From Escherichia coli (GTDB lineage: Bacteria; Pseudomonadota; Gammaproteobacteria; Enterobacterales; Enterobacteriaceae): a stretch of DNA of 64,000 nt. A model generated the notes under the pieces. It did no database searches. It was not told where the DNA came from and saw only the letters and a list, made by a program, of their open reading frames with translations. Shown here one piece after another: positions 4,000 through 55,714 of the stretch. The stretch lies in assembly GCF_011045215.1 (NCBI RefSeq), contig NZ_CP049201.1; one strand, given 5' to 3'. The translations under genes were made by a program, and so were the position numbers. Position 1 is the first letter of the stretch. Each line of letters opens with the position of its first letter.

Positions 4000-5673
4000 T
4001 TACTCGCCTTTAGCTGCTTTGAAAGCTTCAGCCATTGCGTTGTTGGAGAAGTTTGCATCTTCCTGTTTGTTAACAGTTGCGATTGCATCTTTCTCGTCAG
4101 CTTCGTCTTTCGCACGAACAGACAGGCTGATTGCACGGTTTTTACGATCAACGCCGGTGAATTTAGCTTCAACTTCGTCGCCAACGCTCAGAACCAGGGT
4201 AGCGTCTTCAACGCGGTCACGGGATGCTTCAGAAGCACGCAGGTAACCTTCAACGCCGTCAGCCAGTTCTACGGTTGCGCCTTTAGCGTCAACTGCAGTT
4301 ACTTTACCGGTTACGATAGCGCCTTTCTTGTTCAGAGCAACCCAGTTGTTGAACGGATCTTCTGCGAGCTGTTTAACGCCCAGGGAGATACGTTCACGTT
4401 CTGCGTCAACCTGCAGAACAACTGCAGCGATTTCGTCGCCTTTTTTGTATTCACGAACTGCTTCTTCGCCTGCAACGTTCCAGGAGATGTCAGACAGGTG
4501 AACCAGGCCGTCGATGCCGCCGTCCAGGCCGATGAAGATACCGAAGTCAGTGATAGACTTGATTTTACCTTCAACACGGTCGCCCTTGTTGTGGGTTTCC
4601 GCGAACTGCTGCCACGGGTTAGCTTTGCACTGTTTCAGACCCAGGGAGATACGACGACGTTCTTCGTCGATATCCAGAACCATAACTTCCACTACATCGC
4701 CAACGTTAACAACTTTGGACGGGTGGATGTTTTTGTTGGTCCAATCCATTTCGGAAACGTGTACCAGGCCTTCAACGCCTTCTTCGATTTCAACGAAGCA
4801 GCCGTAGTCGGTCAGGTTGGTCACGCGACCAGTCAGTTTGGTACCTTCCGGATAACGTTTAGCGATAGCTACCCACGGATCTTCGCCCAGCTGTTTCAGG
4901 CCCAGGGATACACGGGTACGTTCGCGGTCGAACTTCAGCACTTTAACAGTGATTTCGTCGCCCACGTTGACGATTTCGCTCGGATGCTTAACGCGTTTCC
5001 AGGCCATGTCAGTGATGTGCAGCAGGCCGTCAACGCCGCCCAGATCAACGAATGCACCGTAGTCAGTGAGGTTCTTAACGATACCTTTAACTTCCATGCC
5101 TTCCTGCAGGTTTTCCAGCAGCTGATCGCGCTCTGCGCTGTTTTCGGATTCGATAACGGCACGACGAGAAACAACAACGTTGTTGCGCTTCTGATCCAGC
5201 TTGATTACTTTAAATTCAAGCTCTTTGCCTTCCAGGTGCAGAGTGTCACGCACCGGACGAACGTCTACCAGAGAACCTGGCAGGAACGCACGAATACCGT
5301 TCAGCTCAACAGTGAAGCCGCCCTTAACTTTGCCGTTGATAACACCGGTAACAGTTTCAGCATCTTCGTAAGCTTTTTCCAGCGTGATCCAGGCTTCGTG
5401 ACGTTTAGCTTTCTCACGGGACAGCAGAGTTTCACCGAAGCCGTCTTCTACTGCGTCCAGAGCAACGTCAACTTCGTCACCTACCTGGATTTCCAGCTCG
5501 CCCTGGGCGTTTTTGAACTGCTCAGCCGGGATGGCGGACTCAGATTTCAGACCAGCGTCAACCAGTACTACGTCTTTGTCGATAGCAACAACAACGCCAC
5601 GAACGATAGAACCCGGGCGGGTTTCGATTTCTTTTAAGGACTCTTCAAAGAGTTGAGCAAAAGATTCAGTCAT
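4000..5673 (-). CDS. rpsA: 30S ribosomal protein S1
   Basis: 557-aa [35 protein letters not shown]... with repeated S1 domains; conserved cmk-rpsA-ihfB synteny. Confidence 0.97.
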
Positions 5674-52930: not shown

Positions 52931-53113
52931 ATGTATAATTGTGGTGAATCATATTCAGAATACGACATATCATTATCTGACGATGAAAACTATAACGATG
53001 ACTATTATCGTGAACGCCCGTGCCCGGGAGAAGTTTTCGGCTATGATAATACTGAGGATAATGATGAGGCGGCATCTGATTATGCACTAAAAATAAATGA
53101 AAACTCTGATTAA
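52931..53113 (+). CDS. Hypothetical small, highly acidic protein (60 aa)
   Basis: ORF MYNCGESYSEYDISLSDDENYNDDYYRERPCPGEVFGYDNTEDNDEAASDYALKINENSD preceded by a GAGGAG Shine-Dalgarno about 8 nt upstream; AT-rich context. Confidence 0.35.
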   Translation: MYNCGESYSEYDISLSDDENYNDDYYRERPCPGEVFGYDNTEDNDEAASDYALKINENSD

Positions 53114-53251
53114 TACGAGGTGGCTGATAATAAGACAATCAATGACAAATATTAATGAATAAACATAATCAGGCGCTCAATACTTGATTTAATCTGGGCG
53201 CCTGATTAAAATCTGAGGTAACATATAATAATTTTCATCAAAATAGTATTT

Positions 53252-54276
53252 ATGTGTGTGATTCATAGACATCGTTTCAATTTTCTCAGCTCAAGTTCAA
53301 GCTTGTAATTCTGTTCCTGAATATGCTCCTTATTGGGCTGATAGCTTGCGTGAACGGCATCCGAGTATGGCGTTTTCTCAGCAAGTTCAAAGTAGCGCTC
53401 CATCGGCGTTTTACCGTTGTGAGCGCAATGAGGACGTTCCCAGTTATAGTAATGCTGCCATTCTGCCAGTCGCTCCTCCAAGTTATCAGTAGCGATATCT
53501 ACGGTAGCGTAAAACTCAGCTTTGTCTGTCTTTTGGGAGCGTTCAACTTTGCCATTAAGATGGGGTGATGCTGGTTTATTTGGACGAAACTTGATGCCGT
53601 ATTCTTTCAGTCTTTCCTGCACCTTAACGGCAAAAAACTCTCTTCCCCGGTCTGTCTGAAAGCGCTGAATCGGGAACGGCATTTCTTCAATAAAACAATC
53701 AATGAAATCCAGTGTGTTTGTAGTCGTGCGACGGGAATAGAGCCTCAGAACTCTGTAGCGAGTGCAATCATCAACAGATGTGTACTGATATAAGCCGGGG
53801 CCAATTTTACAGGTATCCATCTGAACCCAATCACCGGGAACAGGGCGTTCGTAGCGAATGAAATCAGCTTTACGCCGGAGTTTAACAACAGGTTTAACCT
53901 GATTCTGGCAAAGAACTTTGTGGATTGTTGCCATTGCAAGTGAGATTGAATGAAGTCGTTTTAACTCGCTTTGAATCCGTCTTGCACCCAGATTTCGCTG
54001 GGAACGTAACTCCAGAATCAGAGCGACTTCGCAAGTGCCGGTTTTCGTTGATGGCGAACGCTTAGGGCGACGGCTGTGGCTTTCCAGACCAGCGATGCCC
54101 TGAGCCAGATATCTGCGCCACCATTTACGCAATGTGGGGCGGGAAATACCGCAGCGACGGCATACGAACCCCGCGTCACCAGACGTTTCATAGAGTTTTA
54201 CCCACTGTAGCCGCTGCTGAATTTCCCTGTTCATAGTAAGGCATTATAGTGAAACGATGTCTATGAATCACACAAG
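53252..54276 (-). mobile_element. Compact ~1.0 kb insertion sequence with one DDE transposase gene and ~24-bp perfect terminal inverted repeats (tentatively IS481-like)
   Basis: Terminal repeats TGTGTGATTCATAGACATCGTTTC and its reverse complement flank the transposase ORF; family assignment is tentative. Confidence 0.75.
53263..54234 (-). CDS. DDE (rve-type) transposase
   Basis: 323-aa ORF with N-terminal HTH (CGISRPTLRKWWRRY) and an integrase-core-like central region. Confidence 0.85.
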   Translation of the reverse strand: MNREIQQRLQWVKLYETSGDAGFVCRRCGISRPTLRKWWRRYLAQGIAGLESHSRRPKRSPSTKTGTCEVALILELRSQRNLGARRIQSELKRLHSISLAMATIHKVLCQNQVKPVVKLRRKADFIRYERPVPGDWVQMDTCKIGPGLYQYTSVDDCTRYRVLRLYSRRTTTNTLDFIDCFIEEMPFPIQRFQTDRGREFFAVKVQERLKEYGIKFRPNKPASPHLNGKVERSQKTDKAEFYATVDIATDNLEERLAEWQHYYNWERPHCAHNGKTPMERYFELAEKTPYSDAVHASYQPNKEHIQEQNYKLELELRKLKRCL

Positions 54277-54425
54277 TAAAGAACCTTGCAGAGGCGTTCG
54301 AGCATTATAACGAATGGCATCCGCATAGTGCGCTGGGTTATCGCTCGCCACGGGAATATCTACGACAGCGGACCTGTAATGGGTTAAGTGATAACAGATG
54401 TCTGGAAATATAGGGGCAAATCCAG
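54277..54425 (-). mobile_element. IS2 right-end remnant (3' end of the IS2 transposase reading frame plus terminal repeat), truncated by the adjacent IS
   Basis: Encodes ...[39 protein letters not shown] and ends ...TGGAAATATAGGGGCAAATCCA, recognised as the IS2 terminus. Confidence 0.6.
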
Positions 54426-54598
54426 CGTAATACCAACCATATAATCTCTAGGAGGAGTATTTTTACAATAGTAAGAACTATCATACATCCCCCTACAGAT
54501 TCAGAGAAGAAAAAGAATTAATTATCGTCAAAACTTTCGACAAATCACATCATTAACATGATAACAACTAACAAAGGACAAGCTAATGAAAGATGTGA

Positions 54599-55714
54599 TT
54601 ACTGCATCAATACGGTAGCTATCGCACTGCCAGAAAACGATCCAGCATCAATTCTGTTTGTATCTATAACCCTATATTGTGACGTTATATCAAATGTTCT
54701 ACTTCCACTGATAACCCCCGAAAATTCCTTCGCACCATCAACAGTCAATGTGCACTTTCCATTATCTCCACATCGAGTTACATTCCCCCCTTCCCCTGAT
54801 ATTAGATTACTACCTTTAATGGTTATATCTACTCTGGTTGGTGAACTGCAATTAATCACTAATCCGGCCTTAGCAAAGTGTCCATCACGAGCCTGGGCTG
54901 ATGTTATTGCATTATGATTTATTGATATATCTTTATTCCCTGCTATATTACAGGATGCCAGAACATTCACTCTTACAGGGGCATATCTGTTCTCCATATT
55001 AACTACTGCAGACTCAACACCCCCACCATCAGAACAATATTTTTCCCCCTTATACCATTCCTCAGATCCTATTTTTAGCGGAATGTTTAAATCATATATT
55101 CCGGCTAAAGCACTGCCCCTCTCTATCGTTACCCTCAATTTGGTACTCTGAAAGTTGTTATATACCAGAGGATATCTGTATCCCGGGACAATTTCTCCTT
55201 CTGGGAATGGTCTGTCATACCAATCATAGTTATCATAAACACCAACGTAAGTCTGATAACCATTATAAATACCACGTTTATTATACCCCCCGGAAATAAT
55301 CTGAATACTCCCTTTCAGACCATTACCCAATCGTATGTTATTACTATCAACTGGCATCGCAATCCATGTTGCCTGACTCTTTGAGCCTTTACCCGAAAGA
55401 ATCTTAACCGGCGAGCTAACAGGCACATTATGACGCTGGACCCAGCTAACAACTGCAGACGTTCTTGGTGCCAGACCGGGCAATACAATATCAAAATAAC
55501 TTGCTGTGTTTCCTGAGGAAATTGTTACATCCGGAATAGTAACATTGTTACCATCTAACTGCCACAATATTTGCATATCACGACAAGGTTCATATGCAAA
55601 TGAACAACCTGATATAAAAACAAAAAGATAAATTATTTTCTCACACCACATACCTTTCACACCTTGTATATCCCCAGACCAGAAAATCCCTGAGCGCATA
55701 AATAACCCTCTCAC
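54599..55714 (-). CDS. Putative secreted lipoprotein, beta-rich, unknown function
   Basis: 371-aa ORF; likely start at internal MWCEKIIYLFVFISGCSF (lipobox ISGC; start ~55651); Gly/Ser/Asn/Tyr-rich; AT-rich codon usage unlike the core genes. Confidence 0.6.
   Translation of the reverse strand: MRGLFMRSGIFWSGDIQGVKGMWCEKIIYLFVFISGCSFAYEPCRDMQILWQLDGNNVTIPDVTISSGNTASYFDIVLPGLAPRTSAVVSWVQRHNVPVSSPVKILSGKGSKSQATWIAMPVDSNNIRLGNGLKGSIQIISGGYNKRGIYNGYQTYVGVYDNYDWYDRPFPEGEIVPGYRYPLVYNNFQSTKLRVTIERGSALAGIYDLNIPLKIGSEEWYKGEKYCSDGGGVESAVVNMENRYAPVRVNVLASCNIAGNKDISINHNAITSAQARDGHFAKAGLVINCSSPTRVDITIKGSNLISGEGGNVTRCGDNGKCTLTVDGAKEFSGVISGSRTFDITSQYRVIDTNRIDAGSFSGSAIATVLMQ

Follow-up and report, generated by a model that had tools for sequence, protein, structure and literature searches.

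The insertion sequence (IS) at 53255..54274 (minus strand, 1,020 bp) of the window, as we call the entire 64,000-nucleotide stretch of Escherichia coli DNA analyzed here, reads as a hybrid of two lineages of IS481-family elements, with the crossover placed by alignment within 54077-54138. The arrangement around it very probably arose by homologous recombination between one copy of this IS inserted at an ATTTATG target and a second, ISEc18-type copy lying in IS2, with deletion of the DNA between them. The structure as such is already in RefSeq, in E. coli strains C5 and 52F4, where an IS481 family transposase stands beside a partial IS3-family integrase core.

The IS481-family element and its two lineages

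The ends of the element (5'-TGTGTG...CACACA-3') were fixed at 53255 and 54274 by comparing the empty site, the occupied site and other copies. They lie within a bracketing inverted repeat, the arms of which (53249-53279 and 54250-54280) are 94% complementary and share a perfect core of 25 nt, TGTGTGATTCATAGACATCGTTTCA, at 53255-53279 (plus strand), far from the transposase start and identical in the other copies examined, and at 54250-54274 (minus strand), beside the transposase start. The 64-kb window contains exactly two occurrences of this core, where shuffles predict 0.00. The first-pass annotation had delimited an element at 53252..54276 with 24-bp repeats; the element is real, and those bounds took in 3 nt of the left flank and 2 nt of IS2.

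The transposase is encoded by a single uninterrupted ORF of 323 aa at 53263..54234 (minus strand), with no programmed frameshift, as is characteristic of the IS481 family, and consists of N-terminal helix-turn-helix domains followed by an rve/rve_3 integrase core. It matched the NCBIfam profile NF033577 (transpos_IS481) with 261.8 bits against a cut-off of 224, over profile positions 1-284 of 284, and failed the IS3 NCBIfam model, with a score of 84.9 below the cut-off of 160. The Pfam domains rve (60.5 bits), rve_3, HTH_28 and HTH_32 all scored above their gathering thresholds, and the motif positions predict a candidate catalytic triad of D140, D195 and E231, with 35 residues between the second aspartate and the glutamate. 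The perfect 25-bp terminal repeats begin with TGTGTGATTC..., in agreement with the length of about 1 kb and the 5'-TGT start of IS481 elements; in the related eukaryotic IS481EU elements, the ends follow the signature TNT..AYA, and most IS481 members make 6-bp target duplications (PMC10045372). The element belongs to the IS481 family, and all of the defining features tested are present except a local target duplication, the loss of which is accounted for by recombination and is thus no argument against membership. The earlier description of a compact, autonomous-looking IS with an intact 323-aa transposase was borne out by the family profile, the repeats and the ORF. Transposition of the hybrid, which retains both 25-bp repeats and an intact DDE transposase ORF, is probably still possible, and by analogy with the related IS3 family it would be expected to follow a copy-out-paste-in mechanism.

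On the minus strand, the interval separating the terminal repeat from the transposase ATG (54234-54249, read as TGTGTGATTCATAGACATCGTTTCACTATAATGCCTTACTATG) contains a perfect TATAAT, 8 nt before the ATG, a position that would imply a leader that is very short or absent. The -35 hexamer paired with it (GTGATT) is weak, and the generic promoter scan made no call there; in the promoter and terminator scans, the counts were not above those in shuffled sequence.

The composite nature of the IS became apparent on alignment with copies of three lineages. The closest named relative is, by sequence, ISEc18, represented by copies to which PGAP, the genome annotation pipeline of NCBI, gives the label "IS481-like element ISEc18 family transposase" (among them L013). 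The window IS and ISEc18 share the length of 1,020 bp, identical 25-bp repeats, a single 323-aa transposase and, at the level of the IS group, 7-bp target duplications, yet overall the window IS is only 92.5-93% identical to the labelled copies in DNA and 92-92.6% in protein. Diagnostic sites were taken as those at which the copies in strain EC11 and at locus L008 share a base not found in either of the ISEc18-type copies L013 and L007, so that each lineage is defined from only two copies. At these sites the window IS is of the EC11 type in 62 of 63 cases up to 54076, and of the ISEc18 type in all nine cases from 54139 to 54238, which leaves 54077..54138 as the crossover interval. The Fisher test for this switch gives p = 1.2e-10, an optimistic value since the breakpoint was picked after viewing the data. 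The left ~820 bp thus belong with a separate lineage (EC11, L008), which PGAP labels only "IS481 family transposase", and the right ~140 bp (from 54139 onward) with ISEc18; over the last ~200 bp there are 0-3 differences from ISEc18-type copies. For the protein in strain C5 that is identical to that of the window, PGAP likewise gives no ISEc18 label.

The direction of the exchange can be read from the distribution of divergence. Between EC11-type copies and ISEc18, the differences are spread along the whole length, whereas between the window IS and ISEc18 a divergence of ~7.6% falls to ~0% in the last ~140-200 bp. The recombinant is therefore the window copy.

The window holds one copy of the IS. 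A copy covering at least 80% of it is found in 217 of the 5,426 complete E. coli genomes, none of which has more than three matching places, and identity to the window IS reaches 95% or more in just 18 records. The terminal 25-28 nt are unchanged, apart from single mismatches, among copies with ~7% divergence elsewhere, so perfect repeats reflect functional constraint rather than youth. Consequently, the proposal that the element had been recently active, made from its perfect repeats and intact transposase, is not supported for this low-copy element. Two of the three IS places in C5 are due to duplication of the whole segment from the Cah/Ag43 gene to the EAL-domain gene, the two segments lying ~209 kb apart, and the presence of the chimera in both indicates that it is older than this duplication. 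These segments (L001, 3,979,581-3,993,075; L004, 3,769,196-3,786,019) comprise the Cah/Ag43, GTPase and small-ORF genes, the chimeric IS, the IS2 stub, and the adhesin-like, PapB-like and EAL genes. They diverge from one another 4.8-5.2 kb right of window position 53000, and one of the C5 IS copies has a 6-bp deletion that results in a 321-aa transposase.

The two flanks of the element

On its left, the IS abuts native island sequence ending in ATTTATG (53248..53254), not IS2. The preceding left context (52931..53208, plus strand) is also annotated in C5, EC11 and the O157:H7 strain TR01. It contains a 60-aa ORF (52931..53113, plus strand), which is conserved and very acidic, has no Pfam match and is represented in other strains by WP_000282125/6, followed by a GC-rich hairpin with a 14-bp stem (53166-53208), in the interval that separates the YeeP-like GTPase gene from the IS target. 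The target lies ~40 bp beyond the hairpin, and the insertion is therefore intergenic.

The same site occurs unoccupied in 788 of the 5,426 genomes, including O157:H7, O26, O103 and O145 strains, as counted with a synthetic query that joined the left flank of the window to the right flank of EC11 and counted as present where a match covered at least 80% of it. The empty site in TR01 reads ...AGTATTTATGTACTAAC... (also given as ...AAAATAGTATTTATGTACTAACTAAGC...), with a single ATTTATG. A simple insertion is found in six genomes (E. coli EC11, GN02350, 8D, Br_167_kylling, CFSAN064036 and A36), in which both junctions are shared and the IS is flanked by a clean 7-bp ATTTATG on either side. The left junction of EC11, read directly, is base-for-base that of the window and of both C5 copies, and the ATTTATG-site copies of EC11 and the five other strains share with the window the left flank, the insertion point and the lineage over 53255-54076. 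The EC11-site copy differs from the window IS at 21 of 1,020 bp, 13 of these differences falling in the last 220 bp. The EC11-site copies retain the 7-bp duplication and are followed by remnants of IS66 and ISL3 and by a CBASS anti-phage defence system, whereas in the window copy the right end is of the ISEc18 type and leads into the IS2 stub.

In strains other than that of the window, the DNA right of the ATTTATG site is taken up by IS remnants, namely IS66, ISL3, IS629-like and another IS481-family fragment. The last of these, a 352-bp remnant of a third lineage (L005, 7179-7530 in TR01; also in SpLE1 of Sakai) that corresponds to IS nt 642-992 with 94% identity, lies ~0.93 kb right of the empty site and abuts the end of another IS3-family element, which indicates several independent IS insertions at this spot in EHEC. 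As a donor of the right end of the window IS, this O157:H7 island fragment was discarded, as it consists of third-lineage variants and has no terminal repeat.

The second half of the ATTTATG duplication is absent from the window. The right end of the IS, here and in both C5 copies, runs instead into AGTAAAGAACC, which is IS2 from nt 1182 onward, and the flanking heptamers, ATTTATG on the left and AGTAAAG on the right, form no duplication, which answers the question of flanking duplications raised by the first-pass annotation. Perfect 7-bp duplications flank sister copies at L002, L007, L010 and L012, with targets including ACTAAAA, TTTTATC and CCTAAAG; a 7-bp duplication of an AT-rich target is thus the normal outcome of insertion for this IS group.

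The IS2 remnant occupies 54275..54424 (plus strand) and corresponds to nt 1182-1331 of the 1,331-bp element, with a BLAST identity of 96.7% over 150 bp to the reference, a complete IS2 from strain NT1F25. The previous assignment to IS2 is thus correct, its span of 54277..54425 being shifted by 1-2 nt. Within the stub are the last part of orfB, with its stop codon at 54411-54413, and the right terminal repeat of IS2, with the terminus GGGGCAAATCCA; the corresponding stretch of C5 carries the PGAP annotation of a partial integrase core protein. When the full IS2 was searched by BLAST against the whole 64-kb window, this 150-bp 3' piece was the only match; in place of the two ends and the orfA and orfB of a complete IS2 (IS3 family, IS2 subgroup), the window holds 150 of 1,331 bp, with no left end, orfA or catalytic core, so that the remnant is inert. 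The 5 bp at the IS2 terminus, GCGTA (54425..54429, read from the sequence), presumably represent one copy of the IS2 target duplication, which is 5 bp long in the IS2 subgroup (PMC10045372), and the partner copy was presumably lost along with IS2 nt 1-1181. At the other end of the stub, AGTAAAG (54275..54281; AGCAAAG in canonical IS2) is presumed to be the surviving right half of the 7-bp duplication made by an ISEc18-type parent in IS2, plausibly so because it directly abuts the IS end and resembles the known targets CCTAAAG, ACTAAAA, TTTTATC and ATTTATG.

The surrounding island and a probable decayed fimbrial locus

Judged from ORF layout only, bases 1 to ~39,350 of the window appear to be core chromosome. 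The rest looks like an island of the CP4-44/SpLE1 type, with an Ag43/Cah autotransporter and the YeeP-like GTPase. To the right of the IS2 stub follow a 371-aa ORF (54599..55714, minus strand), the stop codon of which lies 174 bp from the IS2 end, then an adjoining gene for a PapB/FocB-type regulator, and an EAL-domain gene (56798..57730). Further right are a gene for an AraC-type regulator (57834..58475) and additional mobile genes, namely IS3-family orfA/orfB (59462..61029, plus strand), a helix-turn-helix protein (61613..62248, minus strand) and an IS21-type IstB ATPase (63009..63758, minus strand).

The 371-aa protein, which had been taken for the product of an orphan lipoprotein gene, has no Pfam match of its own. 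Its relatives (51-66% identity) show a weak match to MrpH_C and sub-threshold matches to PapG_C and Fimbrial, and relatives at 53% identity are encoded by the last gene of chaperone-usher fimbrial operons, which are complete in a Klebsiella variicola relative. The family is very small (23 clusters among 5.8 billion proteins), and the right-hand DNA with this ORF was found by megablast in only two of the 5,426 E. coli genomes. The PapB-like ORF ends at 55641, and no usher, chaperone or pilin genes stand beside the 371-aa ORF. Going by the operons of its relatives, the gene is more likely an orphaned fimbrial one, and probably encodes a tip adhesin stranded beside the regulator of its former operon.

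A related arrangement is carried by plasmid A of C5, a conjugative IncF plasmid (NZ_CP010123.1, 134,000-155,624; L014/L015), in which a stretch 96.6% identical to the PapB-to-EAL portion heads a complete Pap-like operon that is interrupted by ISEc8 and ends in three tandem genes for hypothetical proteins of ~315 aa. The similarity hints at a common origin of the chromosomal fimbrial remnant and the plasmid operon. A plasmid origin of the entire right-hand segment was considered and rejected: plasmid A of C5 is the only plasmid that matches, over the PapB-to-EAL stretch at 96.6%, and tblastn returned nothing like the 371-aa protein.

Probable recombination between two IS copies

It is textbook behaviour for recombining IS copies to lose their target duplications along with the DNA between them. 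In the scheme that we favor for this locus, an element of the EC11 lineage would have transposed in the ordinary manner into the intergenic ATTTATG target that lies, in an SpLE1/OI-type island of E. coli, downstream of both the GTPase gene and the small ORF, with formation of the 7-bp duplication. Another copy, belonging to the ISEc18 lineage and in the same orientation, would have resided within IS2 at the target AGYAAAG (IS2 nt 1182-1188), the host IS2 lying just downstream of the decayed fimbrial locus, with GCAGYAAAG|TGTGTGATTCATAGAC as the predicted parental left junction. A crossover at 54077-54138 would then have deleted the interval between the copies, including IS2 nt 1-1181 and the reciprocal junctions, and left one hybrid IS, with the left flank and the left ~820 bp derived from the first copy, and the right ~140-200 bp (beyond 54077-54138) together with the right flank from the second. 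That an element lacks its target duplication is, in a number of cases, put down to recombination of one IS with another, which is well recognised (PMC11708052).

Two features of the locus agree on this course of events. The left junction is inherited from an insertion with an ATTTATG duplication, so the right flank was replaced after the original insertion, and the lineage switch inside the IS concurs with the change of flank, as expected from recombination between two copies. The junction of the IS right end with ATTTATGTACTAAC occurs only in the six simple-insertion genomes and is missing from C5 and 52F4, of which 52F4 matches the whole IS and IS2 stretch at 99.4%. The junction of IS2 (up to nt 1188) with the IS left end is absent from the 5,426 complete E. 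coli genomes, and the window lacks the sequence that lies to the right of the empty site. These results fit recombination in direct orientation with loss of the interval, and speak against both an inversion and a cointegrate that was retained. None of the 5,426 complete E. coli genomes showed the predicted parent, in which an ISEc18-type copy would lie in an otherwise whole IS2; this ancestor may simply be unsampled, given that the right-hand DNA is present in only two of them. In a metagenome collection, the predicted parental junction and the window's own known junction both returned nothing, so that this search had no power for either.

Two similar-looking arrangements were rejected. Twelve plasmids of pig ETEC gave the only full-coverage matches to the reciprocal-junction query, and have an unrelated arrangement in which an 86%-identical IS2-like remnant stops 47 bp before an ISEc18 copy with its own ACTAAAA duplication. 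Strain CFS3313 (H9), in which IS2 and ISEc18 seemed to be nested together, presents the reverse case, ISEc18 being the element that received an IS3-family insertion. Among other copies of the IS group, a single duplication, TCTAATG, is split between those at L003 and L008: it stands at the right of the L003 copy (after position 5364) and at the left of L008/L009 (before 311 and 304, respectively), in different genomes and with neither copy having a duplication of its own. This suggests further flank exchange between copies of the group.

The main rival explanation, to which we give a small chance, is an adjacent deletion made by the transposase, in which the right end of the ATTTATG copy would have attacked the downstream IS2 in an intramolecular or one-ended event, so that no second copy is needed. 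It would suit the parental copy not having been found (in the 5,426 genomes or in the metagenome collection that had no detection power), as well as the resemblance of the new right flank, AGTAAAG, to a preferred target, and duplications are frequently missing because of adjacent deletions (PMC11708052). However, such a deletion leaves the IS itself unchanged, whereas the last ~140-200 bp are of the ISEc18 type at nine of nine sites, so that an extra gene conversion has to be invoked; since it predicts no internal lineage switch, we rate this explanation much lower than recombination between two copies. In addition, adjacent deletions are not typical of copy-out-paste-in transposition, the route thought to be used by the IS3/IS481 group. 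The mosaic could in principle stem from a separate gene-conversion event unconnected with the change of flank.

A very slight chance remains for a simple nested insertion, the structure originally proposed, with an unrelated deletion that later took the 5' part of IS2 and the DNA to its left. A truncated IS2 does abut the IS on the right, at the plausible 7-bp target AGTAAAG, and an insertion into IS2 at some stage probably did take place. Nevertheless, a nested insertion should have IS2 on either side and a target duplication, whereas the left flank is native island DNA, the duplication is missing and the IS is chimeric. The left junction is identical to that of EC11, where the duplication proves insertion at ATTTATG; an unrelated deletion would have had to stop exactly at the IS tip and recreate this flank, and the lineage switch within the IS would be left unexplained. 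Scarcely credible, finally, is a duplication-less IS movement coupled to DNA-break repair or a large rearrangement (Ngan et al. 2024) that placed the IS at the break between island and IS2: such events, including one case from the IS481 family, have been reported (PMC11708052) and the window has no duplication, but the left junction goes back to a normal, duplication-forming insertion and the internal mosaic is a specific signature of a homologous crossover.

For a broader proposal we see an outside but real chance, namely that the left ~820 bp represent a lineage unnamed in ISfinder, ~7% from ISEc18, that makes 7-bp duplications, prefers AT-rich nYTWAWn targets and is preserved here in a hybrid, still-mobile recombinant, or else that the join is itself a duplication-less, break-associated event (Ngan et al. 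2024).

The locus is a routine mobile-element scar with little import beyond annotation, and the refinement over the first reading lies in the recombination of two copies to give a hybrid IS; the conclusion that the locus has been remodelled repeatedly is upheld. A perfect terminal repeat and an intact ORF alone do not date an insertion. Beyond this, the locus provides a clean worked example, with all three states of the site (empty, simply occupied, recombined) represented and the crossover narrowed to 62 bp, and it documents how a decayed fimbrial locus came to be joined to a variable part of an SpLE1/OI-type island.
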